A stretch of 64,000 nt of DNA from Clostridia bacterium (GCA_017550895.1 JAFZNN010000236.1:1232-65231), one strand, 5' to 3'. Counted from the stretch's first letter, positions 7,922 to 32,257 are shown. Translations and numbers: made by a program. The notes: generated by a model not told the origin, from the letters alone.

Positions 7922-8293
7922 TCAGATCTCCGCCATCCAGAGCCCGTGCAGGTTGCAGTAGGCATACACAGCCGTCGGCTTGTCCCCCGCGAGGGCGAAA
8001 ACGGCCGTCGGCGCGCCGGTGGGATCCAGATCCTTTTTCTGGAAGCCCTGCGCCGTTTCCAGCACGATCCACGCAATGTGGTGCGCCTCGATCATCGGAT
8101 GCGCCGCCGCGCCGACCGTGACCGTCACCTTGTCTCCCTCGACCGCGGCGACCGGCACGTGCTTCTCCACGGACGCGTCCACGGAGCCGGGCACGATCTC
8201 CTGCATTTTCTGCCCGCAGCACATCACGGGCACCCCGTGATTCTCCATATAGGCAACGATGTTGCCGCAATGCGCGCACTGATAAAACTTCAT
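7922..8293 (-). CDS. dfx: desulfoferrodoxin / superoxide reductase
   Basis: CAHCGN..CCG desulforedoxin domain; EKHVP, HPM..H and CNLHGLW SOR ligands. Confidence 0.93.
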   Translation of the reverse strand: MKFYQCAHCGNIVAYMENHGVPVMCCGQKMQEIVPGSVDASVEKHVPVAAVEGDKVTVTVGAAAHPMIEAHHIAWIVLETAQGFQKKDLDPTGAPTAVFALAGDKPTAVYAYCNLHGLWMAEI

Positions 8294-8436
8294 TCCGAAA
8301 CCCTCCTGTCGTTATTTTTTTCATTATAGCATATCCGCCCGGAGAAAATCAAGTCCGGCCCGGCGGGTTTCCGCGCGCCATCAAAATCGCGCGGAAAGGC
8401 CGCCCGAAACCCGCTGAAAATTTTTAAAAAAAGGGC

Positions 8437-8465
8437 TTGACGCAAGCGGCGTTTTATGATATAGT
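8437..8465 (+). promoter_or_regulatory. tRNA operon promoter
   Basis: TTGACG-17-TATAGT with extended -10 TG. Confidence 0.8.
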
Positions 8466-8480
8466 TATTTAGCATTCCGT

Positions 8481-8556
8481 GCTGGTGTAGCTCAGTTGGT
8501 AGAGCAGCTGATTTGTAATCAGCAGGTCGGGGGTTCGAGTCCGTCCACCAGCTCCA
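8481..8556 (+). tRNA. tRNA-Thr(TGT)
   Basis: 76-nt cloverleaf; anticodon arm CTGAT-T-TGT-A-ATCAG; GTTCGAG T-loop; encoded CCA. Confidence 0.97.
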
Positions 8557-8587
8557 TGGCGGCTTTCGACCCCTTAAAATAGAATAT

Positions 8588-8672
8588 GGGAGAGTTCCCG
8601 AGCGGCCAAAGGGGGCAGACTGTAAATCTGTTGTCACTGACTTCGGTGGTTCGAATCCACCCTCTCCCACCA
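8588..8672 (+). tRNA. tRNA-Tyr(GTA)
   Basis: 85 nt; acceptor stem GGGAGAG/CTCTCCC+ACCA; CAGA-CT-GTA-AA-TCTG anticodon arm; long variable arm. Confidence 0.97.
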
Positions 8673-8674
8673 TG

Positions 8675-8704
8675 AAAAAACCTCGTCTTCGGACGAGGTT
8701 TTTT
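8675..8704. terminator. terminator at the head of repeat copy A
   Basis: AAAAAACCTCGTC-TTCG-GACGAGGTTTTTT. Confidence 0.85.
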
Positions 8705-8707
8705 CAA

Positions 8708-8884
8708 CGATGTGTTCCGCTCTCGCGGAACGTGATGTTTGCTTCGCAAGTGATGTGCCCTTCGGGCGTGATGTGTGCCTGCGGCACGTGTGCGGAACAC
8801 ATTACATCACTGCGACCAAAGGGAGCAACATCATTTTTGACGCTTGCGTCAAAAACATCACTTGCGCCGCAGGTGCATGCTTCA
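8708..8884. repeat. modular TGATGT/ACATCA+hairpin (REP/BIME-like) repeat, copy A
   Basis: Four (T/C)GATGT units then four (A/G)C(A/T)TCA units, each separated by a short hairpin. Confidence 0.85.
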
Positions 8885-8962
8885 CAAAAAGTGCCTTAAA
8901 GCCGCGTGCAACGGCGCGATTTCATTATTGATTACAGTTGCCATTCCGTTCGCGCGGCACAG

Positions 8963-8992
8963 AAAACGACGTGTTTCGACACGTCGTTTTTT
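8963..8992. terminator. terminator-like hairpin
   Basis: AAAACGACGTGT-TTCG-ACACGTCGTTTTTT. Confidence 0.8.
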
Positions 8993-8993
8993 C

Positions 8994-9095
8994 AATGAAG
9001 CCGACCCTTGCGGGGCGAATAAAGGATTGAAGGCGCTGCACGAACGAAGACGCTCTTTCGGAGCTGATTGTTTCTGTGGGCGGCTTCGCTTCATT
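8994..9095. repeat. inverted-repeat-bounded ~100-bp element (element D)
   Basis: Ends AATGAAGC/GCTTCATT; sub-terminal GAAGCCGACCC/GGGCGGCTTC. Confidence 0.55.
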
Positions 9096-9270
9096 CCAAC
9101 GTTTGATTTTTTGAGAAAACAGTATCATTCGCGTTCCATCCCTGTGTCCCGGCTTTTGTTCTGCATTTTATATTTAATAATAATCTTTCATTGCGACAAA
9201 ATATTTATATTGTTTAAAACAATTCGATGTGATATAATAACATTGCACTAAAAACAGGAGGGCAAACTCA

Positions 9271-10677
9271 ATGAAAAAAGCAACCAGAAAAGCGCTTGCA
9301 TTGACGCTCGCACTTGTGATGGCATTTTCCTGCCTTGCGTTAAATTCTTTTGCCGCTACAAAGGATAACATTACGTTCAAGGTGCAGGGCAAAGGCGGTT
9401 ATCTTGCCATCGGCGACAGTATCGGCATGGGCTGCGGTTCCGACGGTTACTATCTGGGGCATTACCATGGCGACTACCAATACCGCGACTGCGAGGGCTC
9501 CTATGTGACACAAATCGCAAACGCAGTCGGCTGCGACATTCCCACACACAGCATCACAGACCAGAATTCCAACTTCTATCCGTTCTGCTATCCCGGTATG
9601 ACCACTGCCGTCGCTCTTGACCTGTACGGCGTTGACGACGGGTATTCGGATTATGAGCTTGACTACCCATACTACCACGCAATGCTTACTTATTTCGGCA
9701 CGCCTGCTTCTCTTCCCTCAACGCGCGATGAAGATCCCCGCTATGAAGCAGAGGGCGAAGTGCAGCACTATGTGGAAGGCAACTGCGGAAAGTGCGGCGA
9801 CATCATTGAGCTTACAAAGAATGCGGAGCTTATCACGATAGAACTGGGCATGTGCGATATTTTCTACCGCGCTTACCGTATTCTTTCCGAGGGTACGCTA
9901 CTTGCAGATTTAAAGCTTGATGCTTCCATCGCAAGCAAAGCCGGAGATATTCTCACAAAGGCAATCAGCCTGATCAAAGACGGCTTCAACAACTGGAAAT
10001 CACAGTATCCACTTCTTCTGAAGACCGTGACAGAATTAAATCCCAATGCCACGATCCTTATCTGCGGCAGCTTTAACCTGATCGACGATATAACGCTTCT
10101 TGACGAAACCGTTTTCCCTCTCGGCGATATCATGACCAATATTACTGAGCAGATGAACATTCTGTATGAGCGGTGGGCAAAAGAGTACGGCGTTACTTAT
10201 GTTGATATTCAGAACTGTGAAACATACGCCACGGAAAACAACATGGCGCTTCTCGGCGATTATATGAATGATTCACTTACGTCCTCTCATCCCAGCCAGA
10301 CGGGTCACGACTATATCGCAAGACAGTTTCTTGCCGCGCTTGCACCCGTTGAAGAGCATCACAACATCTATGTTGACCTTGTAAGAAATACAAGTGTAAG
10401 CAAGGTTCTTATCAACGGCATACCCGTAACCAGCTACACGGTTAACGGCTACGACCTCAACGTTGACTACACCGGCAAGCTCGCAAAAAGCATGACGATC
10501 TTTATCGACAACGGCAACGGCACCACCCAGATGCAGTATTACGATCTGGAATACAAGGATGGCGGATATGTCGTTCATCGTGTTTACCAGAACAACGATT
10601 ATCGCGGACTCTTTACCCGTCCGTTCAAGCTTCTCAAAAAGCTGTTTGAACTCATCAAGGGACTTTTCAGCAAATAA
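9271..10677 (+). CDS. secreted SGNH/GDSL hydrolase-family protein
   Basis: Signal peptide MKKATRKALALTLAL..; YLAIGDSIG and DSLTSSHPSQTGH motifs; TTGTTT-17-TATAAT promoter; visibly less GC-rich than the flanks. Confidence 0.75.
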   Translation: MKKATRKALALTLALVMAFSCLALNSFAATKDNITFKVQGKGGYLAIGDSIGMGCGSDGYYLGHYHGDYQYRDCEGSYVTQIANAVGCDIPTHSITDQNSNFYPFCYPGMTTAVALDLYGVDDGYSDYELDYPYYHAMLTYFGTPASLPSTRDEDPRYEAEGEVQHYVEGNCGKCGDIIELTKNAELITIELGMCDIFYRAYRILSEGTLLADLKLDASIASKAGDILTKAISLIKDGFNNWKSQYPLLLKTVTELNPNATILICGSFNLIDDITLLDETVFPLGDIMTNITEQMNILYERWAKEYGVTYVDIQNCETYATENNMALLGDYMNDSLTSSHPSQTGHDYIARQFLAALAPVEEHHNIYVDLVRNTSVSKVLINGIPVTSYTVNGYDLNVDYTGKLAKSMTIFIDNGNGTTQMQYYDLEYKDGGYVVHRVYQNNDYRGLFTRPFKLLKKLFELIKGLFSK

Positions 10678-10735
10678 GCAAGAATCATAGATCAATCCAG
10701 AAACCAAGTGGATCTTTTTCGTAGGGAACAGCCAC

Positions 10736-10944
10736 AAAAAGCCTCGTCTTCGGACGAGGTTTTTTCAATGATGTGTTCCGCTATGCGGAACATGATGTTT
10801 GCTTCGCAAATGATGTGTCCTGCGCGCATGATGTGTGCCTGCGGCACATGAAGCGGAACGCATCGCATCATTTTGCGGCGAAGCCGCAATACATCATTGT
10901 GAGCAACGCGAACAACTTCATTTGCACCGCAGGCGCATACTTCA
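10736..10944. repeat. terminator plus modular TGATGT/ACATCA repeat, copy B
   Basis: AAAAAGCCTCGTCTTCGGACGAGGTTTTTTCAA then the element at 10769-10944, homologous to copy A. Confidence 0.88.
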
Positions 10945-11008
10945 CTATTCATGTAATTAAACATTCTCGTATAATCAAGATAGTTGCCAATCCGCTCGCG
11001 CATCACAG

Positions 11009-11190
11009 AAAAAGCCTCGTCTTTCGACGAGGTTTTTTCAATGATGTGTTCCGCTATGCGGAACATGATGTTTGCTTCGCAAATGATGTGCGCTGCGCGC
11101 ATGATGTGTGCCTGCGGCACATGAAGCGAAACGCATCGCATCATTGCAACCAGCGGAAGCAACATCATTTGCGCCATCGGCGCATACTTG
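11009..11190. repeat. terminator plus modular TGATGT/ACATCA repeat, copy C
   Basis: Left arm nearly identical to copy B; right arm one hairpin module shorter. Confidence 0.88.
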
Positions 11191-11327
11191 CCTATCATAT
11201 AATTAAACATCATTATTCTGCTGTTCTTCAGAACAAGGCAGCCGCATTCAACCAAAAGGTGTTTTTCTCTTCCTCATCGTTGATGCTTTTTGAACCTCCG
11301 GCATTGCCCGGGGGACACTGATCGACA

Positions 11328-11362
11328 GAAAAGCCGGGCAGTCATCAGCTGTCCGGCTTTTT
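11328..11362. terminator. terminator (GNAT gene, possibly bidirectional)
   Basis: AAAAGCCGGGCAG-TCATCAG-CTGTCCGGCTTTT. Confidence 0.8.
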
Positions 11363-11385
11363 GTTTGTGTTTGATTGGAAATCCA

Positions 11386-11955
11386 TCAGGTCTGAAAGCG
11401 ATACCGCGTCCGGTCTGCGGCGCCGGTCCGGATCCATTTGTCCGTCAGCGTCGGGAGGGCGAATCCCCAGTTTTCCGGCACGGCGTGCGCGATGTGGCGA
11501 AAGCCGTTCTTTTTCAGCACACGCGCAGACGCCTGATTCTCCAGCATCGTGCTTGCCGTGATGATCTCGACGTCCGTTTCCTCCAAAAGATAGCGGACCA
11601 TCAGGCCGAGCGTTTCCGTCGCGATCCCCTGCCCCCAGTACTCCTGCAGCAGCCGGTACCCGACGCTCGCTTTGTGAAGCGGGGCGCGATAGCCGTAGAT
11701 TTCCGCCAGGCCGCAGAACACATTTTCCAGATACACGCCGAGGATCAGGGACGTGCGCAGGCACTCGTCATACAAATGCCGGACGACGTCTTCTTTCTCC
11801 TCATATTTCAGTTCAAACAGAAAGGTCGGGAGATACCGGTACACCTCGGCATTTTCCGTCAGCGCGCGCAGATGCTGCGCGTCGGACAGCGGCACCCGGC
11901 GCAGCGCAACGCGCTCGCCTGTCAGGCAGGGGATCTCCGAAAACAGCTTTTTCAC
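11386..11955 (-). CDS. RimJ/RimL-type GNAT N-acetyltransferase
   Basis: VGYRLLQEYWGQGIATE and ENQASARVLKKNGF motifs; GTG start. Confidence 0.88.
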   Translation of the reverse strand: MKKLFSEIPCLTGERVALRRVPLSDAQHLRALTENAEVYRYLPTFLFELKYEEKEDVVRHLYDECLRTSLILGVYLENVFCGLAEIYGYRAPLHKASVGYRLLQEYWGQGIATETLGLMVRYLLEETDVEIITASTMLENQASARVLKKNGFRHIAHAVPENWGFALPTLTDKWIRTGAADRTRYRFQT

Positions 11956-12233
11956 GATCAGGCTTCCTTCCGAATAAAAATAATAGATCTCCTCGCCGCG
12001 TTCGGGACAACCGCGACGGGACTGTTCTGCTTCCGCAGCGCGTCAAAACTTGCCGTTTTTGACGGCTGCCGTATCAGAGGTAAAAGGAGTAACATTATTA
12101 TATAACAGATCCATCATGAATTTCAAGCCGGAAATGCGCGTATCGCATCGTATTTTGCAGGCGCGCTCCTGCGTAAAAACGCGGTTGAAAAGGCCTCTGA
12201 TTTATGATAGAATCATCTTGTATCTTCTGCCTT

Positions 12234-21605: not shown

Positions 21606-22808
21606 ATGACGATCAACAGGATAATAAACGGCGTCCGTTGGCGGATCGGATTCCTCGTGAAAACGTGCGCGGACTGCATGGAGTTTCTGAAGTATTATTT
21701 GCTTTATCCGTTCGCCGCTCTTTACCGGAACCGCGATATCTGGATTGTCTCCGAGCGCGGCACAGACGCCAGGGACAACGGCTTTCATATGTTCAGATAT
21801 CTGCGTGAAAACGATCCTTCCGGCGCGGTTTATTATATCATTTCCAAGGATTCCGCAGACAGAAAAAACGTGGCGCCTTACGGGAACATCATCAACTACG
21901 GCTCGCTGAAGCACTACCTGTTTTTCATCGCGGCAAAAGTGCGCATCAGCTCCCATTTCATGGGCACTTCGCCCGACAGAAGCTTTTACACGCGCAAGCG
22001 GGATTGGATCCGCTTGCCGGGAAAAACGGTTTTTCTGCAGCACGGGGTCATACAGTGTGATCTGAAGCAGCTGCACGCAGACAAAACCCGCCTGGATCTT
22101 TTTATCTGCGGCGCAGCGCCGGAATATGAATACGTCAAAGCGACGTTCGGCTACCGAAACAACGAGGTGCGCTACACCGGCCTTGCAAGATACGATCAGC
22201 TGCACGATTTCGAAACGAAAAAGCAGATCCTGATCATGCCGACCTGGCGAAAGACCCTGCACGCGCGCCGCGCCCGCGGCGAAGCCCTTGCCGACAGCGC
22301 CTTTGTCAAACGCTGGAATTCCCTGCTGAAGAATGAAAAGCTGCTGAACGCGGCGAAACGCGCGGGCGTCACGATCCTCTTTTACCCGCACGTCGAGCTG
22401 CAGCGGAATCCGGGTCTGTTCGTTTCGACCGACCCCCGCGTGATCCTCGCGGATTTCGCGCACTACGACGTTCAGACGCTGCTGAAGGAATCCGCGCTGC
22501 TGATTACCGATTATTCCAGCGTGCATTTTGATTTCGGCTATATGAAAAAGCCGGTGGTCTATTATCAGTTCGACGCGGAAGAATTCTTCTCCCTGCATTA
22601 TGCGCCCGGCTATTTCGACCACAAGACCATGGGCTTCGGCGAAGTGACCGACGATGAAGCCGCCCTGGTCGATTTCGTCATTGACTATATCGAAAACGGT
22701 TTTTCCGCAAAGGAACCGTACAGGCAAAGAAGCACGGCGTTCTTCCCTTTGCATGACAGAAACAACTGCAGCCGGATCTATCAGGAGATCCTGCGTCTTG
22801 AATCCTGA
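21606..22808 (+). CDS. CDP-glycerol glycerophosphotransferase (TagF/EpsJ-like), paralog 1
   Basis: DNGFHMFRY, FLQHG, ILIMPTWR and LITDYSSVHFDF motifs. Confidence 0.88.
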   Translation: MTINRIINGVRWRIGFLVKTCADCMEFLKYYLLYPFAALYRNRDIWIVSERGTDARDNGFHMFRYLRENDPSGAVYYIISKDSADRKNVAPYGNIINYGSLKHYLFFIAAKVRISSHFMGTSPDRSFYTRKRDWIRLPGKTVFLQHGVIQCDLKQLHADKTRLDLFICGAAPEYEYVKATFGYRNNEVRYTGLARYDQLHDFETKKQILIMPTWRKTLHARRARGEALADSAFVKRWNSLLKNEKLLNAAKRAGVTILFYPHVELQRNPGLFVSTDPRVILADFAHYDVQTLLKESALLITDYSSVHFDFGYMKKPVVYYQFDAEEFFSLHYAPGYFDHKTMGFGEVTDDEAALVDFVIDYIENGFSAKEPYRQRSTAFFPLHDRNNCSRIYQEILRLES

Positions 22809-22860
22809 GCGCCCGGCCGCCCGCCGTGCGCGGACAACACTCGGAATGGACAGATCTGAC

Positions 22861-24033
22861 ATGGTGAAAAAAACGATCAATTGCATGCATTATCTGTGGC
22901 TGCTCGTGCAGTACGGATTTTTCTTCGTGCTCAGCAGGTTCACGAAAAAATACCGGGATCTCTGGCTGTTTTCGGAACGCACGCTCGACGCGCGCGACAA
23001 CGCCTGGCTGCTTTTCCGGCATCTGCGCACCGCGCACCCCGAGATCCCCTGCGCCTTCGTCATTGACCGCGAAAGCCCGGATTATGAAAAGGTCCGCGCG
23101 ATCGGAAAAACCATTCAGCCGGGGTCCTTTGAGCACAACCTGGCGTTTGCCGCCGCCGGCGTCAAGATCAGCACCCACATCATGGGGTTCGCGCCGGACC
23201 GCTACCGTTTTGCCATCCTCGACAGGTATCTTTCGCTTGTCAAAGGAAAAAAGGTCATGCTCCAGCACGGCGTGACCGGCAATCTGCCCGCGGAGCTTCG
23301 CTTCCCCCGCGCCCGGCTCGATCTGCTCGTGTGCAGCACCGTGCCGGAATATGAAATGGTCTGCCGGGACTTCGGGCATCCCGCCGGCGTCGCGCAGCTG
23401 ATCGGCATGTGCCGGTTTGATCAGCTGTTTTCCCCGCATGAGATCAAGCGGCAGGTGCTCATCATGCCCACCTGGCGAAAGACGCTGAAAGACCTCGACG
23501 CAGAAGCGTTTTTGCAGACGGATTACTATCGCTGCATCAACGGCCTGCTCTCCGACGCGCGCTTGCTGTCGATCCTGGAAACATACGATCTGAAAGCCGT
23601 CCTCTATCTTCATTTTGCGCTGCAGCACAGGTCTTCGCTTTTCCGCGCGGGCAGCGACCGGGTCGAGATCCGGACGATCCACGACGCGGACATTCAGGGC
23701 CTTCTGAAGGAGTCGCAGCTTCTGATCACCGATTATTCCAGCGTGCAGTTTGATTTTGCGTATATGGAGAAGCCCCTGCTCTACTGGCAGTTTGATGAGG
23801 AGGCGTTCTTCTCCACACAGTACGGGCGCGGGCAGTTCGACTACCGGCGCGACGGGTTCGGGCCGGTGATTGACACGGCGGACACGGCCCCGGTGCTGGA
23901 TTTCGTCGAGGCAGAGGCGCGCAATCAGATGCAGATGCTGCCCGAATACAAAGAAAGATCGAAAATCTGCTTCGCCGAAAAGCGCGGCGACCACTGTGAA
24001 CAGACCTTCCGCGCCATCCGGTCCCTGCTTTAA
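22861..24033 (+). CDS. CDP-glycerol glycerophosphotransferase (TagF/EpsJ-like), paralog 2
   Basis: DNAWLLFRH, MLQHG, VLIMPTWR and LITDYSSVQFDF motifs. Confidence 0.88.
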   Translation: MVKKTINCMHYLWLLVQYGFFFVLSRFTKKYRDLWLFSERTLDARDNAWLLFRHLRTAHPEIPCAFVIDRESPDYEKVRAIGKTIQPGSFEHNLAFAAAGVKISTHIMGFAPDRYRFAILDRYLSLVKGKKVMLQHGVTGNLPAELRFPRARLDLLVCSTVPEYEMVCRDFGHPAGVAQLIGMCRFDQLFSPHEIKRQVLIMPTWRKTLKDLDAEAFLQTDYYRCINGLLSDARLLSILETYDLKAVLYLHFALQHRSSLFRAGSDRVEIRTIHDADIQGLLKESQLLITDYSSVQFDFAYMEKPLLYWQFDEEAFFSTQYGRGQFDYRRDGFGPVIDTADTAPVLDFVEAEARNQMQMLPEYKERSKICFAEKRGDHCEQTFRAIRSLL

Positions 24034-24061
24034 TCGCAACTGTTTGTCATGGAGAACCGAA

Positions 24062-25242
24062 ATGATTTTCAAACGGATTTCAAACAGCATTCATCGGAAA
24101 CTTGTCATCGTCGATGAGTTGCTGAAATACTATCTTCTGTATCCGCTGGCAGCGATCTATCGCAAGCGCGACATCTGGATCATCGCGGAGCGCGGCATGG
24201 ACGCAAGAGACAACGGGTTCCATCTGTTCAGATACATCCGGGAAACGGATCCTTCGCGCGAGGTCTATTATATCATTTCCAAAAAATCCCCGGACAGGAA
24301 ACACGTGGAGCCCTACGGAAACGTCGTCGACTACAGATCGCTGAAGCATTATCTGCTGTTCATTGCCGCAAAGGTCAAGATCAGCACGCATATCATGGGC
24401 TTCTCGCCCCACAGAGGGTTTTATTCGCGCATGATCAACCGGCTCCGCCTGCCGGGCAAAACGGTTTTCCTGCAGCACGGCGTCACGCAGTCCGACATCC
24501 GGCAGCTGTACGCAAAAAGGGCAAGGCGGATCTTTTCATCTGCGGCGCAAAGCCGGAATACGAGTTTATCCGCGCCCATTACGGCTACCGGAAGGGCGTG
24601 GTCAGATACACGGGGTTTGCAAGATACGATCATCTGCACGACCTGCAGACAAAAAAGCAGATCCTGATCATGCCCACCTGGAGGAAATCGCTCGCGCGCA
24701 TGGCCTACAGCGGCAAGTCCATTGCGGACACGGAATTTATCCGCCGCTGGAACAGTCTGCTGAACAACCGGACCTTGCTGGACGCCGCGGAGCAGGCGGG
24801 CGTCGACATCCTGTTTTATCCGCATTATGAGCTGCAGAAATTCCTGGGCCTGTTCTCCTCCGCCGGCAAAAACGTGACGATCGCGGACGCTCTGCATTAC
24901 GACGTGCAGCCGCTTCTCAAAGAATCCGCGCTGCTGGTCACGGATTACTCCAGCGTGCACTTTGATTTTGCCTATATGAAAAAGCCCTGCGTTTACTATC
25001 AGTTCGATCCCGACGCGTTTTTCACGCAGCAGTACAGAAAGGGCTATTTTGATTTTGAAACCATGGGCTTCGGGGAAGTCACGGATTCCGAAGACGCGCT
25101 GTGCGGCATCCTGATTGATTATATCAGGAACGGATTTGCGGAAAACGAAAAATTCAAGCAGCGCTGCGCGGCCTTTTTCCCGCTGCATGACAAAAACAAC
25201 TGCCGCCGGATCTATGAGGAGATCCTCCGGCTGGATCCCTGA
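24062..25242 (+). pseudogene. CDP-glycerol glycerophosphotransferase paralog 3, frameshifted
   Basis: Homology to paralog 1 switches frame at about 24513-24528; 1181 nt is one base short of a 393-aa ORF. Confidence 0.8.
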
Positions 25243-25294
25243 GCCGCTCCCGTAAGAAACGACCCGTGTTCCGCGCTGCAAAGGAGGCGCTTTT

Positions 25295-27707: not shown

Positions 27708-28499
27708 ATGGATGTGTTTGAAATTCTGAATCGGCATTATCATTCCCATGACGAGGAAAGCCGCCTGCTGTCAAGGCATGGGCAGGTGGAGTATCTCACG
27801 ACGCAGCACTATATCCGCGCCTACGCGGATGCCATAAATGCAAAACGGATCCTCGAAATCGGGGCGGGCACGGGCAGATACAGCGTGCCGCTGGCAAAAG
27901 CCGGCTACGACGTCACCGCCGTGGAACTTGTGGAGCACAACCTCGCTCTGCTGCGCGAAAAGCTCGACGGCAGCGAACCGCTCACGGCCCTGCAGGGCAA
28001 TGCGCTGGATCTTTCGCGTTTTCCCGACGGCGATTTTGATCTGACGCTGCTGCTGGGGCCGATGTATCATCTGTTCACGTTTGAGGATCAGCAGCAGGCG
28101 CTGTCCGAAGCGGTGCGCGTCACAAGGCCGGGCGGTTATATTCTGGTTTCCTATTGCATGAATGAGCCGACGGTGATCGACTACATTTTCCGGCGCGGGA
28201 ATCTCGGCAGCGTGCTTGAAAACAAGATGCTGACCGAGGACTGGCACTGCAAAAGCGAGCCGAAAGAAATCTTTGAGCTTTACCGCACCGAAGATATTGC
28301 CGCTCTGAATGCAGCCGTCAACGTCACGCGTGAAAAGCTGGTGGCCACCGACGGCGCGACGAATTATTTGAAAGAAATGATTGACGAAATGGATGATTTC
28401 ACCTTTGCGAAATGGGTGGAATATCATTTCGCCGTCTGCGAGCGGCAGGATCTGATCGGCGCGTCGCACCATACGCTGGATATTTTGAGGAAGCGATGA
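27708..28499 (+). CDS. class I SAM-dependent methyltransferase
   Basis: ILEIGAGTGRY, FDLTLLLGPMYHL, VTRPGG. Confidence 0.88.
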   Translation: MDVFEILNRHYHSHDEESRLLSRHGQVEYLTTQHYIRAYADAINAKRILEIGAGTGRYSVPLAKAGYDVTAVELVEHNLALLREKLDGSEPLTALQGNALDLSRFPDGDFDLTLLLGPMYHLFTFEDQQQALSEAVRVTRPGGYILVSYCMNEPTVIDYIFRRGNLGSVLENKMLTEDWHCKSEPKEIFELYRTEDIAALNAAVNVTREKLVATDGATNYLKEMIDEMDDFTFAKWVEYHFAVCERQDLIGASHHTLDILRKR

Positions 28500-28512
28500 G
28501 AAAACACCCGTT

Positions 28513-28998
28513 ATGATTTATGAAATCGAAGAAAAATCCATATTGCCGGTTTGTTTGAATATGATTCATAAGAGTTTTGCTACGGTTGCAGATGAATTCC
28601 ATTTGACAAAAGAAACCTGTCCCGGGTATACTGCGTTTATGGCTCTTGATAAGTTGCAAAAATCATTTGAGTCGAGCAATCGGATGTTTTTGTATTACTC
28701 GGATTCAATCCCGGTCGGTTTTTTCTTATTAAAACAGCTTGACGGTGAAACATGGGAATTGGATCACCTTGCCGTGCTCCCGGAATACCGTCACCGCGGA
28801 ATCGGGAAAGAATTATTGAATTATGCCGAAAAAACTGTTCGTGAGCAAAACGGAAAGTTGCTGAAAATCGGAATTATGGAAGAAAATGTGAGGTTAAAAC
28901 AGTGGTATCTCAAGAATGGGTTTGCATCAACCGGAACAAGACGCTTTGAACATCTGCCGTTTGCGGTAGGTTTTATGGAAAAGGATGTTGAAAAATGA
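28513..28998 (+). CDS. GNAT N-acetyltransferase (low GC)
   Basis: LAVLPEYRHRGIGKELL..WYLKNGF. Confidence 0.85.
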   Translation: MIYEIEEKSILPVCLNMIHKSFATVADEFHLTKETCPGYTAFMALDKLQKSFESSNRMFLYYSDSIPVGFFLLKQLDGETWELDHLAVLPEYRHRGIGKELLNYAEKTVREQNGKLLKIGIMEENVRLKQWYLKNGFASTGTRRFEHLPFAVGFMEKDVEK

Positions 28999-29801
28999 AT
29001 TTTCGTTTCAAAGTCAGCAGGTCTAAGGTCTTGCTTTTCTCCGGGAAAAAACTTGTTTCTTCAGAAGAAGACTACGTTGCTTATATGAAAAAAACTGCTG
29101 CGGATTACACACCGAAGCAGATTGTTATAAATGATGAATCCGTGAAAAATGATGTTGCCGTCGATGCTTTGTTTTGCGTTATTCCCGAACACAGAGATTT
29201 AAATAAAAAATATGACTTCCCATATTCACCCGATTTGTCGGATAAAGAGAATGTCTTGGCAATTATGAATCACCTGACAGAGCACACTTATTACTGCGGC
29301 GCAACAAGAAACATCCTGCCGGATGACGGCGCTGAAATACTGGAGAACGCTTTTGATTTGCCCTTTGACAAAGCTCTGAATTGCAGATCAAAAGCTATCG
29401 TTTTAACCGATATTCTTAATTCTTGCGGAATAAAATCACTGCCTGTATGCTGTATGTTAAATGAGGGCGGCTGTCATTTTCTTGTAAATGTTTGGCTGAA
29501 AGAGGAAAACAGATTTATCGTTGTTGACCCTTCGTTCAACTGCTTTTTCACAGATGAAACAGGCAGAGAATTGTCGGTTTGTGAACTTAGAGACAGCATT
29601 ATTAAGAATAAAGCCGTAACGGTAAACGGGTATTCTTTTCTCAGCACAGATGAATTCAAGAACTATTATTTCTCCGCGTTTATCTGTGACTTAATGGCGA
29701 ATTTATCAACATGGAAGACAAATATACGCGGCAAAAAGGAACTGTCAAAAGTATGCGGTGTTAATTTTGACGCAAAAGTACCGGAAACATTGGATTACTG
29801 A
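28995..29801 (+). CDS. transglutaminase-like (Cys-His-Asp) protein (low GC)
   Basis: LNCRSKA, CHFLVNVW and VVDPSFN triad-like motifs. Confidence 0.65.
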   Translation: MNFRFKVSRSKVLLFSGKKLVSSEEDYVAYMKKTAADYTPKQIVINDESVKNDVAVDALFCVIPEHRDLNKKYDFPYSPDLSDKENVLAIMNHLTEHTYYCGATRNILPDDGAEILENAFDLPFDKALNCRSKAIVLTDILNSCGIKSLPVCCMLNEGGCHFLVNVWLKEENRFIVVDPSFNCFFTDETGRELSVCELRDSIIKNKAVTVNGYSFLSTDEFKNYYFSAFICDLMANLSTWKTNIRGKKELSKVCGVNFDAKVPETLDY

Positions 29802-29805
29802 TTAT

Positions 29806-30345
29806 ATGGATATAAAAGAGATTACAGACTTTATTTTTATCGGTTCTGCTCCATGCAAAGCGGATGCAATTTTTGTTGTAGGCGGCTCGCTGCCGGAAGC
29901 AGCCGAGCTTGCGGCAGAGTTGTATCACAAAGGGTATGCGAAAACCGTTCTCATCGGCGGAAAGTACAGCGTCAAGCGTGATTGCTTCCCGGTTCCCGGC
30001 TATGAAACGGAATATGATTTTTACAAAGATATTCTGTTGAAAAACGGAGTTGCGGCAAGCGATATTTACGGCGAAAATGAATCGGGCTATACCAAACAAA
30101 ATGCAGAATTTGCAAAACGGGTCGTTAATGAGAACGGGCTGCGTGTCAAAAAGGCAATCATTGTTTGCAAATCCTTTCATGCCAAGCGTTGTTTATTGCT
30201 CTATCAGACGTCTTTTCCCGATGTTCAATTTACGGTTGTTACCTTTGACGGTTTTAATATAAGTAAGGATCATTGGTATCAGACCGAATACGGCAGAAGG
30301 CGCGTCATGGGCGAACTTCGACGAATTGAGGAACAGTGCAAATGA
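29806..30345 (+). CDS. YdcF/DUF218-family protein (low GC)
   Basis: DAIFVVGG, LIGG, TKQNAEF and IVCKSFHAKR motifs. Confidence 0.8.
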   Translation: MDIKEITDFIFIGSAPCKADAIFVVGGSLPEAAELAAELYHKGYAKTVLIGGKYSVKRDCFPVPGYETEYDFYKDILLKNGVAASDIYGENESGYTKQNAEFAKRVVNENGLRVKKAIIVCKSFHAKRCLLLYQTSFPDVQFTVVTFDGFNISKDHWYQTEYGRRRVMGELRRIEEQCK

Positions 30346-31295
30346 GCAAATTATTCTTAAAACCGGCGAACATTGAAGATGCTGAGAAAGAATGGCGGTT
30401 CGTCGCCGCGATGCCTGCGAATGAAAACGGGCTGACGAATAAATGGCATGGTGTCTCGCATGAAAAATTCATATCCGAAGTGCTGCCGAGAATGATAAAC
30501 AATTCAAAAGGAATTGATCTGCCCGAGGGCTTCGTTCCCGATACCACTTTGTTTCTTTGGAACGAAACGGAGATCGTCGGGCAATTCAGATTGCGTCATT
30601 ATCTTCCGGAAACAAAGATACCGGGACATATCGGTTATTATATCGCAAAAGAACACAGGGGAAAAGGCTTTGCCACGGAAGGGCTGCGCCTGACGCTTGC
30701 ATACGGCGCCGGCATCATCCCGGAAGATGAATTTTATATGCGCCTGAATAAAGACAATCCCGCATCCCTGTGCGTGATGCTCAAAAACGGCGGACGGATC
30801 GTCGGCGAAACAGAAGATAAGTTGATTGTAAAGATTCCGAAGGTCGGCTGTCCTGTTTCTCAGATCAAGCAAATCAGCCCTGACGATTATCCCGCGTGCG
30901 CGGCGGCATTCGGCGGCGGTTGTTCCTTTGCCGAAACCTGCCTTGCGCAGCAGCAGGCGGGGAACCGCGAAGCGTACGCGCTGTTTGTCAACGGGGAGAT
31001 CGCCGCAGAGTGTCATCTCGTCTACGATAACCCGGACTACGGCACGGTCCCCGGCAGACGGCTGTATTTTTCGCGCCTGATCGTCAAAAAGGGAGAACGC
31101 GGCAAAGGATACGGCGAGGCGCTCTCCCGCGCGCTGCTCGACATCGCCAAAGAAAAAGGCTATCGGGAAATCGCGCTCGGCGTGAACCGGGACAACACCG
31201 CCGCCGTGCGGCTGTATCGGAAGCTCGGCTTCACTGTGTATGAGGAAGCCGCGGACGCCGACGGCGAATTTTACAGAATGGAGAAACTGCTGTGA
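30342..31295 (+). CDS. tandem two-domain GNAT acetyltransferase
   Basis: HIGYYIAKEHRGKGFATE (domain 1) and LIVKKGERGKGYGE (domain 2). Confidence 0.82.
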   Translation: MSKLFLKPANIEDAEKEWRFVAAMPANENGLTNKWHGVSHEKFISEVLPRMINNSKGIDLPEGFVPDTTLFLWNETEIVGQFRLRHYLPETKIPGHIGYYIAKEHRGKGFATEGLRLTLAYGAGIIPEDEFYMRLNKDNPASLCVMLKNGGRIVGETEDKLIVKIPKVGCPVSQIKQISPDDYPACAAAFGGGCSFAETCLAQQQAGNREAYALFVNGEIAAECHLVYDNPDYGTVPGRRLYFSRLIVKKGERGKGYGEALSRALLDIAKEKGYREIALGVNRDNTAAVRLYRKLGFTVYEEAADADGEFYRMEKLL

Positions 31296-32257
31296 CTCGA
31301 GAAGACCTGATCCTTCGTCGCCCGACGGCAGATGATGTGCCGGAGCTCCTTTCCTACCGGCAGGCGTTTCTGGACTCCGGCGGTTCTATGGACGGCGCCG
31401 GTCCGCTGCGCCGCTTTGAAAATCCGCTGGACTGGCTGCGCGAAGTCGAGGCATATGCGCGGCCGGAAACCGTACCGGCAGGCCTGGTGCAGGCAACGCA
31501 GTTCGTCTGCGTGCGCAAGCGCGACGGGCGGATCGTCGGCATGCTGCAGGTGCGCCATCGGTTTAACGACTATCTTGAAAAATACGGCGGGCACATCGGC
31601 TATTCCGTGCGGCCCGACGAGCGCCGGAAGGGCTACGCAAAACAGATGCTGCGGCAGGGGCTGGATTTCTGCCGGACGCTCGGCCTGCCGCGCGTGCTGA
31701 TTGCCTGCAATACGGAAAACGAAGCCAGCCGGCGGACCATTCTCGCCAACGGCGGCGTTTATGACGGCACGGTGTTCGAGCCGGAAAAAGGCGAAACGCT
31801 GGAGCGCTACTGGATCGATCTGCGTCTGCCGCAGAAGGACGCGCCCGGCCGCTCCGGCGCGCAATCAAATGAAACGATCTCGGAGGAAAAACCCATGCTG
31901 TTTATCTGCTATCCCAAATGCACGACCTGTCAGAAGGCGCAGAAGTGGCTGGACGCGCAGGGCGTGTCGTATGAATTCAGAAACATCAAAGAGCATCGCC
32001 CGACCGAGGCGGAGCTGCGCGACTGGCACGCGCGCAGCGGGCTGCCGCTCAAGCGCTTTTTCAACACGAGCGGCCTGCAATACAAGGCGCTGCAGCTGAA
32101 AGACCGCCTGCCGGAAATGAGCGAGGATGAACAGTTCGCCCTGCTCGCTTCCGACGGCATGCTGGTCAAGCGCCCGCTTTTAATTTCGGACAACCTGGTC
32201 CTCGTCGGCTTCCGGGAAGCGGAGTACGCACGCGCCGCGCAGACGGAAAACGCATGA
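31292..32257 (+). CDS. GNAT acetyltransferase in frame with an ArsC/Spx-family protein (internal start 31895)
   Basis: HIGYSVRPDERRKGYA GNAT ending YWIDL, then a linker, then MLFICYPKCTTCQKA..LVKRPLL with its own GGAGG RBS. Confidence 0.8.
   Translation: MTREDLILRRPTADDVPELLSYRQAFLDSGGSMDGAGPLRRFENPLDWLREVEAYARPETVPAGLVQATQFVCVRKRDGRIVGMLQVRHRFNDYLEKYGGHIGYSVRPDERRKGYAKQMLRQGLDFCRTLGLPRVLIACNTENEASRRTILANGGVYDGTVFEPEKGETLERYWIDLRLPQKDAPGRSGAQSNETISEEKPMLFICYPKCTTCQKAQKWLDAQGVSYEFRNIKEHRPTEAELRDWHARSGLPLKRFFNTSGLQYKALQLKDRLPEMSEDEQFALLASDGMLVKRPLLISDNLVLVGFREAEYARAAQTENA

Follow-up and report, generated by a model that had tools for sequence, protein, structure and literature searches.

Three repeated elements occur in a 64,000-nt stretch of DNA from Clostridia bacterium (GCA_017550895.1 JAFZNN010000236.1:1232-65231), hereafter the window, from whose first letter all coordinates are counted. 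These elements, named A, B and C, are shown here to belong, as orphans, to a family of modular hairpin arrays that extends across Clostridia and in which small hairpins alternate with a short linker. Genes for one clade of proteins of the Pfam family PF05635 ('23S rRNA intervening-sequence protein'), referred to below as four-helix-bundle (FHB) proteins, constantly have an array of this family as upstream neighbour, and the linker of the array changes with the protein clade. The reading that we favour, at a probability of about 0.42, is that the array would be the cognate nucleic-acid partner of a PF05635 oligomer, with the linker as specificity element and the orphan copies as further sites.

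Copies A (8675-8884), B (10736-10944) and C (11009-11190) follow one common design. Each opens with a boundary hairpin, P0, followed by CAA, a first linker (L1, (C/T)GATGT) with its hairpin H1, and three modules composed of R-TGATGT and a hairpin (H2 to H4); the 3′ portion consists of a centre, made of GCGGAAC and a doubled ACATYA/CATCA, and of two or three modules in which a hairpin is followed by ACATCA or ACTTCA. In copy A, the left-arm linkers start at 8708 (CGATGT) and at 8733, 8751 and 8769 (TGATGT), the centre carries ACATT+ACATCA at 8799-8809, and the right-arm linkers start at 8828 and 8855 (ACATCA) and at 8879 (GCTTCA). All the features that a preliminary description of this DNA had given for three modular linker-plus-hairpin copies are present in the sequence, and the copies are real; their extent needed correction, as the unit begins 33 nt before the starts proposed there (8708, 10769 and 11042) and includes P0. 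A pattern of three linkers spaced by 8-24 nt matches six times in the window, against 0.00 matches expected from 100 shuffles. A covariance model of the left arm, run over the 64 kb, finds three sites only, at 100, 91 and 88 bits (E 1e-22 to 7e-19), and the same model weakly matches the right arms of the copies on the minus strand (27, 20 and 18 bits). It misses a decayed fourth copy after A, recognised by its degenerate linkers TGAAGC, TGAAGG and TGATTG and by a junction motif that is 76% alike to 10982-11044 between B and C (repeat family D14). B and C form a tandem duplication with a period of 273 nt and 96% identity over 140 nt. The alignments show a gap where copy C is short of one right-arm module; together with unit-level tandem runs in two other family members (L250 and L281, L-numbers being labels of the collected loci), this bears out the earlier proposal that modules are gained and lost as units.

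P0 belongs to the repeated unit and reads as an intrinsic terminator on both strands: it comprises CCTCGTC-N4-GACGAGG and six T, and the terminator scan lists minus-strand equivalents for B and C. In other subfamilies, the T-run of P0 is missing. P0 is shown to be a boundary hairpin that often also serves to terminate the unit upstream of it, which is typically a tRNA operon.

The family is not limited to the three copies of the window. The search for further copies yielded about 190 relatives, i.e., at least about 105 arrays with UGAUGU/ACAUCA linkers (G-type) and 86 with UGAUAU/AUAUCA linkers (A-type). The generic three-linker pattern recovered about 25 true relatives amid chance matches; a search with the conserved centre AMACATCACATCAYTGCG gave at least 120 loci, about 85 of them real among the matches listed; and a complete scan with the 19-mer covering L4 and H4 of the UGAUAU type gave 103 loci, of which 86 are arrays. 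By annotation, all hosts are Clostridia of the gut and rumen (Oscillospiraceae, Acutalibacteraceae, Ruminococcaceae and 'Eubacteriales'); two are cultured, Faecalibacterium langellae CNCM I-4541 and Faecousia intestinalis CLA-AA-H192, and the remainder are metagenome-assembled genomes (MAGs). Two-armed elements exist in both orders, with either the TGATGT arm or the ACATCA arm first, alongside single arms, whole-arm tandems (L268) and amplified single linker-plus-hairpin units. One array (L261:1693-1790) mixes linker types, TGATAT/TTATAT modules being followed by TGATGT modules. In one subfamily (L131, L133, L129, L136, L143, L145 and L171), a conserved extended -10-like motif, TGGTATAAC, a hairpin, CACACTATACCTTGCAGGCAAGGT.GTGTG, and an intrinsic terminator follow about 30-140 nt past the last ACATCA; this post-array cassette could be an attached small RNA of about 55 nt.

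The only protein family that recurs beside the arrays is PF05635. The neighbouring protein matches it with a Pfam E of 2e-29; among solved structures it is closest to 2RLD, an entry of five chains for an uncharacterised protein, and PADLOC returns no match for the neighbouring protein. The FHB gene lies at most 130 nt downstream of the array and in the same orientation at 13 G-type and 11 A-type loci, and it is flanked by arrays on both sides at three loci (L233, L192 and L179). In a reciprocal test, 80 metagenome loci were collected through the protein alone and reduced to 61 distinct loci with enough upstream DNA: a UGAUGU/ACAUCA array is located directly upstream in 59 of the 61, and a tRNA gene within 420 nt upstream in 34. 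Array carriage by 97% of clade-G FHB genes makes a chance neighbourhood hard to accept, and the co-occurrence with four-helix-bundle genes that the preliminary description had put forward for testing is thus strongly positive. The linker follows the protein. UGAUGU arrays precede all nine genes for clade G proteins (at least 73% identical to the query), and UGAUAU arrays precede all 13 genes for proteins further removed, whose identity to the query is 46-55% and most of which carry MxxSILR at the N-terminus, so that clade and linker match in 22 of 22 cases. The FHB gene has a sigma-70-like promoter whose -35 hexamer falls 0-1 nt past the last linker in 29 of the 33 cases scored. At L185, L190, L192 and L169, the genes beyond the FHB gene differ by locus; L185, for example, has an open reading frame (ORF) with a P-loop-like GENGTGKS motif, and the ORFs at L190 and at L192 are unrelated. 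The tRNA-adjacent sites that carry an FHB gene may be hotspots for variable genes.

What is conserved in sequence across the family is the linker and the centre, not the hairpins. The linker, 6-7 nt long and invariant, connects the left-arm hairpins, which are small and very stable. At each of the seven hairpin positions, 33-47 different sequences occur, and several types of Watson-Crick pair are seen at every depth of the stem; in an alignment of 20 sequences 93-94% of hairpin cells are paired, against 68-76% after shuffling and 28-44% when the partner is slid. The stem covariation that had been quoted for the window copies (CCC/GGG versus CGC/GCG; TGCGCC/GGTGCA versus TGCACC/GGCGCA) is present. 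Since the structure is shown to be preserved through compensatory changes, it is in the form of a folded single strand that the element acts.

The two arms differ in their loops and in their non-canonical pairs. Read on the plus strand and over the whole family, left-arm loops are T..C in 68% of cases and G..A in 0%, while right-arm loops are G..A in 53% (GAA, GTA, GCA, GNRA) and T..C in 2%, and the asymmetry described for the window, with TTC and TGC on the left and GAA and GCA on the right, is therefore true of the family. Tandem G.A/A.G pairs are conserved in two stems of the right arm, H5 (UGCGA..GAGCA) and H6 (UAUGA..GAAUA); right-arm oppositions comprise 78 purine-purine and 0 pyrimidine-pyrimidine cases, and the left arm has nearly none. 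The opposed GA/GA reported earlier is real but confined to the right arm, and because the tandem G.A pairs sit in that arm alone, the arms are not plain mirror images. Loop and G.A counts do agree with the inverted polarity of the modules between the arms, described earlier as ACATCA plus hairpin on opposite strands. The stems are almost purely Watson-Crick: on the plus strand, G.T and A.C number 40 and 24 overall, 11 and 8 among the roughly 600 pairs of the internal stems, and 29 and 16 in P0. As G.T stands barely above A.C, wobble pairs give no transcribed strand, and the counts were judged too weak for strand assignment. Kissing between complementary left and right loops was also discarded (34 matches within elements observed, 37 expected), as was a K-turn or box C/D reading of GUGAUGU, for which inspection by eye found no partner strand with the required GA beside a stem.

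In addition to the local hairpins, a long-range helix, P1, forms between linker 1 plus the 5′ half of H1 and the centre, spanning about 75 nt. Among UGAUGU arrays, 96.8% of P1 is paired and three of its pairs have changed on both sides, a support equal to that of the local H1. Among UGAUAU arrays, any of the four bases can stand third in linker 1, and the centre matches each time (TTTTAT/ATAAAA in 15 cases, TTATAT/ATATAA in 8, TTCTAT/ATAGAA in 3 and TTGTAT/ATACAA in 1), and L282 has an unrelated yet complementary linker-1/centre pair, CTAAATAAATCC/GGATTTATTTA. These changes support P1 specifically because linker 1 is unpaired in the local-H1 fold; P1 was also assessed by duplex energies, matched versus mismatched. 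H1 and P1 are mutually exclusive and P1 is the longer helix, from which we infer a bistable arrangement in which P1 could displace H1, starting at linker 1 as a toehold. The other linkers behave differently. As a class, linkers 2-4 are complementary to those of the right arm, and the two sets shift jointly between the subfamilies (UGAUGU/ACAUCA versus UGAUAU/AUAUCA), and no compensating change is seen in the presumed partners of the variant linkers TGATGC, TGAAGT, TTATAT, ACTTCA and ATATAA. RNAalifold predicts a four-way-junction ladder, at -75 kcal/mol against -56 kcal/mol for the local hairpins alone; its energy is good, but the linkers are invariant, their variants are uncompensated, and the pairing of linker 1 with the centre alone is supported, so that the ladder was set aside. 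The branched RNA with TGATGT-ACATCA pairing that the preliminary description had offered as an alternative thus holds for linker 1 and the H1 5′ half with the centre, where four-state covariation is found, and fails for the other linkers, which show no compensation within elements.

Such conservation bears on the view that the array is a selfish or neutral repeat whose structure is kept only for the needs of a copying mechanism. Dispersed copies, the B-C tandem duplication, the decayed copy after A and the variable module numbers would all fit, but in hosts that are annotated in several families seven hairpins and P1 are kept through compensatory change, and the position of the array is fixed relative to tRNA terminators and FHB promoters, so that we hold this view to be very improbable.

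Judged by their sequence, the window copies are members of the Gut-1 class, a sister of Gut-1 with a different linker, and not a new family in kind. A permissive Rfam scan of the window returned, besides tRNAs, Gut-1 (RF01706) alone, over the full model length, with 37.0 bits for A, 31.3 for C and 25.9 for B (E 1e-4 to 0.07). These values lie below the 50-bit gathering score because the linker is UGAUGU/ACAUCA instead of the UGA(A/U)AU/AUAUCA of Gut-1. The Gut-1 consensus reads CAAUGAAAU-hairpin-GUGAAAU-hairpin-GUGAAAU-hairpin-UGAAAU (Rfam RF01706; PMC2864571), and the same layout is found in the window copies, with at least three small hairpins, an invariant linker and CAAYGA in front, UGAUGU replacing UGA(A/U)AU. 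Thus, the CAA-YGA start, the hairpins with an invariant (G)UGAnnU linker, the gut metagenome and Clostridia hosts and the occurrence of tandem copies are common to both. Taken with its flanks, the Gut-1 seed BAAZ01025322.1 runs from a tRNA 3′ end through a terminator, UUAUAU-H1 and three GUGAUAU-hairpin modules ending in UGCCUGCGGCA to a centre, GCGAAUAUAAUAUCA, followed by hairpins spaced by AUAUCA, and the seed BAAZ01000095.1 has the same build (PMC2864571). The seeds therefore share P0 with its terminator, the centre and the inverted arm with our arrays, one of them directly after a tRNA gene, and the H4 of the seed is almost identical to that of the window copies. The larger element, composed of boundary hairpin, centre and inverted arm in gut Clostridia, is found in the two Gut-1 seeds and in the 86 UGAUAU-type arrays, whereas the Rfam model spans three left-arm hairpins only.

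Gut-1 was described from human-gut sequences by Weinberg et al. (2010) and rated there as a likely RNA that is not cis-regulatory (PMC2864571). The parts of the 2010 text and of the Gut-1 supplementary entries that were consulted contain no description of the right arm, P1, the tRNA link or the PF05635 link, and the literature searched holds no mention of Gut-1 beyond the describing paper (PMC2864571). Of the candidate 'new REP/BIME-like family' first proposed (repetitive extragenic palindromic sequences and bacterial interspersed mosaic elements), a genuine multi-copy modular family remains, and its novelty in kind does not: a match to an already described Rfam family, the outcome named in advance as counting against it, was obtained with Gut-1, below threshold and with the design of the seeds shared.

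The model of the preliminary description had taken the arrays as single-stranded DNA elements akin to REP, BIME and REPIN (REP doublets forming hairpins), with ACATCA-plus-hairpin units on opposite strands processed in trans by an HUH nuclease of the Y1 type, as found in RAYTs (REP-associated tyrosine transposases). The arrays do resemble the elements of Enterobacteria and Pseudomonas in being extragenic, multi-copy and palindromic, with inverted units located at the 3′ ends of transcription units or between them, and they resemble the REP-RAYT system in that a small protein gene can be flanked by copies, as at L233, L192 and L179, while most copies are orphan. Mirrored module polarity and unit-level tandem amplification speak for this model, as does dispersal: copies on separate contigs number at least nine loci in JAFRXS01 (by exact 19-mer), seven in CAKQKW01, five in JAZNCE01 and four in SVTT01, compared with the tens to hundreds of REP and with three plus one decayed in the window. 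In metagenomes containing the window organism, depth over the copies is 5-25x that of unique flanks and short contigs end within arrays, and four copies in one genome, located in unrelated contexts, have a sharp left end at P0 and a ragged right end. Joints between A and B/C appear in metagenome contigs; their short side covers just 24-35 nt and they may be assembly artefacts.

Against this model, all-against-all ORF clustering found no transposase, integrase or HUH family recurring within 3.5 kb of about 180 loci, where only PF05635 recurs, and the co-occurrence with RAYT or IS200-like TnpA genes that had been proposed for testing was not observed there; the gene linked to the arrays encodes a four-helix-bundle protein, not an HUH nuclease. 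A 12-locus cluster of neighbouring ABC ATPases, at 25-29% identity, was dismissed as generic paralogy. REP elements share one conserved palindrome, whereas the arrays have neither a conserved hairpin sequence nor a GTAG motif, their conserved part being the single-stranded linker; since the hairpins differ at every position of the element, there is no single hairpin for a REP-type enzyme to read. A REP-type single-hairpin unit was likewise rejected, as the usual copying unit is the whole composite element of about 200 nt rather than one palindrome. Terminal inverted repeats with a target-site duplication, the mark of miniature inverted-repeat transposable elements, are missing from the four copies in one genome. 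The way in which the arrays are oriented toward upstream genes and tRNAs departs strongly from random. The plasmids searched gave no family match, the phages one weak 71% match, and the viral contigs three chance matches in coding DNA and no arrays. Finally, the proposed comparison of strains uncovered no presence/absence polymorphism among near-identical strains, in which short contigs stop inside arrays, and in other samples the locus is 99.97-100% identical. Taken on both sides, processing by an HUH nuclease appears distinctly unlikely to us.

BOX elements of Streptococcus pneumoniae (boxA-boxB(n)-boxC) are modular intergenic repeats with variable internal modules, ends able to pair and no known transposase of their own. 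The arrays are like them in being modular Gram-positive intergenic repeats, and show no sequence relation to them; BOX modules measure 45-59 nt and are conserved in sequence, whereas array modules measure 18-27 nt and conserve the linker alone.

The genomic position of the arrays is well defined. A tRNA 3′ end lies just upstream of 23 G-type arrays (within 120 nt) and of 5 A-type arrays, usually at 36-47 nt, a gap that corresponds to P0 alone, starting 1-3 nt after CCA. At least 11 tRNA species adjoin arrays, always on the P0 side. Upstream protein-coding ORFs are co-oriented with the array in 99 cases versus 48, which is a bias and not an absolute rule. One single-arm array occupies the era-recO intercistronic spacer in UGAUGU sense, another array stands directly ahead of the ribosome-binding site of an FHB gene, and in some subfamilies intrinsic terminators follow the last linker. 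Too few cases were available (L098 versus L105) to use the polarity of single-arm arrays between co-oriented genes. No conserved promoter is found upstream of P0, and the four copies in one genome have unrelated upstream sequences.

This position is one argument for a DNA-level element, in which duplex or extruded DNA in an untranscribed gap between terminator and promoter would serve as operator or insulator platform for PF05635 or a nucleoid protein, or as a BIME-like supercoiling site at the ends of tRNA operons. Besides the placement of the array between P0 and the FHB promoter, with the last linker almost touching the -35 hexamer, such an element would account for the linker being present in both orientations, for both arms changing together without pairwise compensation, for the nearly pure Watson-Crick stems and for the failure to see an abundant RNA in unstranded metatranscriptomes. 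C-GNA-G triloops, which are unusually stable in DNA, are found on the ACATCA strand of both arms, and an Avd-dependent diversity-generating retroelement (DGR) reportedly requires a DNA hairpin or cruciform with a GRNA loop at its target. However, palindromes of 11-21 bp rarely extrude, and a cruciform holds both versions of a loop, so that a loop polarity tied to the linker would be unaccounted for. A folded single strand is indicated by two features, the four-state covariation that P1 shows across about 75 nt and the tandem G.A pairs present on one strand; in addition, some arrays lie within operons or directly before a ribosome-binding site. A DNA-level role is therefore, in our estimation, unlikely, if worth keeping in view.

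Evidence for transcription comes from unstranded metatranscriptome contigs of the ruminant gut, including cDNA-derived bovine gut contigs, in which related arrays are present; one exact 151-nt piece of bovine gut cDNA covers L251 1402-1552, and a look-up for the Faecalibacterium locus returned no RNA run. An array depth like that of its flanks fits low-level read-through or DNA carry-over and speaks against a very abundant small RNA, though size selection could hide one. These data also bear on the idea of an autonomous structured RNA, independent of PF05635, that would act as a protein sponge or scaffold or as a 3′-end or processing element at the ends of tRNA and other operons, PF05635 being merely a frequent neighbour. 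The idea agrees with the rating of Gut-1 by Weinberg et al., with the strong covariation, with the terminators after the element in some subfamilies and with the fact that most arrays have no FHB gene in reach. It sits poorly with the lack of a conserved promoter upstream of P0 and of any sign of a highly abundant small RNA, and with the 97% of clade-G FHB genes that carry the array; the mirrored loops are left unexplained as well. We regard it as rather unlikely.

Altogether, these observations lead us to favour a model in which an oligomeric PF05635 protein would bind the array as a multivalent platform, specificity being determined by the linker that recurs at the base of every hairpin, and scattered copies such as A, B and C offering extra binding sites. 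The relation between array and protein would resemble that of REP to RAYT or of CsrB to CsrA, and the array RNA could be produced through read-through or co-transcription from the upstream unit. As to the folded form, we slightly favour RNA over single-stranded DNA because of the one-strand G.A motifs, the orientation bias, the terminators after some elements and the arrays inside operons. A fuller version, which by analogy with rRNA intervening sequences would have the whole module homing to, or selected at, the ends of tRNA operons, is put forward more tentatively; here, the arrays may be the specific ligand of PF05635 proteins outside DGRs, as RNA or possibly single-stranded DNA, with an oligomer reading the linker, clade and linker co-evolving and the orphans serving as sites.

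Several observations weigh against the proposed partnership. Most arrays have no nearby FHB gene, and no PF05635 gene or remnant was found in the 64-kb window, which leaves A, B and C as orphans. The co-divergence of clade and linker could come from physical linkage alone, and the array is a candidate ligand of the FHB protein. In the FHB modules, the array lies between the terminator and the FHB promoter, so that transcription there would occur by read-through only, and the cDNA depth over arrays, from 2 to 30, is similar to that of neighbouring genes in the unstranded data. In addition, the mirrored loop polarity of the two arms is not explained by plus-strand RNA alone, and the wobble pairs carry almost no strand signal.

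Membership of PF05635 also connects the linked protein with the Avd proteins of DGRs and with the 23S rRNA intervening-sequence proteins. Avd, a basic pentamer, functions together with a structured RNA, and its five subunits have a parallel in the five chains of 2RLD; the targets of DGRs require a hairpin of GC-rich DNA that bears a GRNA loop. In contrast to DGRs, neither a reverse transcriptase nor a template/variable repeat pair is found near the arrays or the FHB genes, where no second protein family recurs, and, in contrast to intervening sequences, the arrays are not inside rRNA genes. We know of no role for PF05635 outside DGRs, literature matches being sparse.

The features of the window copies and their surroundings are collected in Table 1.

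Table 1. Position and make-up of the array copies and adjoining genes in the window.
Feature	Position	Strand	Description and basis
tRNA-Thr	8481-8556	+	ARAGORN, Rfam tRNA
tRNA-Tyr	8588-8672	+	ARAGORN, Rfam tRNA; copy A begins 2 nt past its CCA end
Copy A, P0	8675-8704	+	A-tract, stem CCTCGTC/GACGAGG, loop TTCG, T-run; repeat search, 91-96% alike across the three copies
Copy A, left arm	8708-8787	+	L1 CGATGT, H1 GTTCCGC/GCGGAAC, three modules R+TGATGT with H2, H3, H4; H1-H3 covary
Copy A, centre	8788-8809	+	GTGT, GCGGAAC (copy of the H1 3′ half), ACATT+ACATCA; complementary to L1 + H1 5′ half (P1)
Copy A, right arm	8810-8884	+	H5 (UGCGA..GAGCA, tandem G.A/A.G), ACATCA, H6, ACATCA, H7, GCTTCA
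Decayed fourth copy	~8936-9110	+	Junction motif AGTTGCCATTCCG.. (AGTTGCCATTCCGTTCGCGCGGCACAG), second terminator hairpin of different stem ACGACGTG/CACGTCGT, then CAATGAAGC.. with degenerate linkers; by eye
GDSL-type lipase gene	9271-10677		468 aa, Pfam PF13472; copy B starts past its stop codon
Copy B, P0	10736-10765	+	Terminator-like hairpin; repeat search and terminator scan
Copy B, left arm	10769-10847	+	TGATGT x4, H1-H4; linker pattern, covariance model 88 bits
Copy B, centre	10848-10870	+	ATGAA, GCGGAAC, GCATCG+CATCA; 13-bp duplex with L1 + H1 5′ half, -23.4 kcal/mol
Copy B, right arm	10871-10944	+	H5, ACATCA, H6, ACTTCA, H7, ACTTCA
B-C junction	10945-11008	+	Promoter-like TTCATG-(16/17)-TATAAT, then AGTTGCCAATCCGCTCGCGCATCACAG; by eye
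Copy C, P0	11009-11038	+	Terminator-like hairpin; repeat search and terminator scan
Copy C, left arm and centre	11042-11143	+	96% identical to B over 140 nt; covariance model 91 bits
Copy C, right arm	11144-11190	+	One module short: H5, ACATCA, H7, ACTTGC; alignment gap
GNAT acetyltransferase gene	11386-11955	-	Converges from the right of C

The lipase gene between A and B/C has a signal-peptide-like N-terminus, and the GC content of 8001-12000 is 0.51 against about 0.60 around it; the lipase stretch may be a cassette acquired between direct array copies beside a tRNA gene. The promoter-like TTCATG..TATAAT after copy B (10945-10975) aligns by eye with the PF05635-gene promoter of L037 and L150. 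From there, the terminator of copy C is reached after only about 60 nt, and either a short transcript or a relic is possible; the promoter scan near the copies lists a single weak site, on the minus strand (10990-10963). Elsewhere in the window, three tandem paralogous coding units occupy 21680-25250 with a period of about 1220 nt and 63-77% likeness (repeat families D1-D4, D7, D11 and D12), and a second low-GC stretch covers 28001-32000 (GC 0.49, GC skew +0.09), GC being otherwise 0.58-0.64.

The arrays also have consequences for the handling of sequence data: they break metagenome assemblies and can be miscalled as ORFs in annotation. Mechanical ORFs of 75-187 aa run across the window copies (8672-8899, 10692-11255 on the minus strand and 10773-11321 on the plus strand), and array-derived 'proteins' formed a 20-locus cluster in the all-against-all ORF clustering, so that miscalling as genes is possible.

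The two-armed architecture, the covarying P1 switch, the position at tRNA terminators and the clade-matched, near-obligate partnership with PF05635 appear undescribed in the literature searched. An explanation is needed for two unusual features of the structure, the mirrored module polarity and the bistable H1/P1 arrangement. Since its description in 2010 (PMC2864571), Gut-1 has stood as an orphan motif, and the association of arrays with PF05635 makes both the orphan motif and the orphan protein family experimentally approachable: their near-obligate, clade-matched pairing provides a testable hypothesis for Gut-1 and for PF05635, as does the fixed position of the array between tRNA terminator and FHB promoter.

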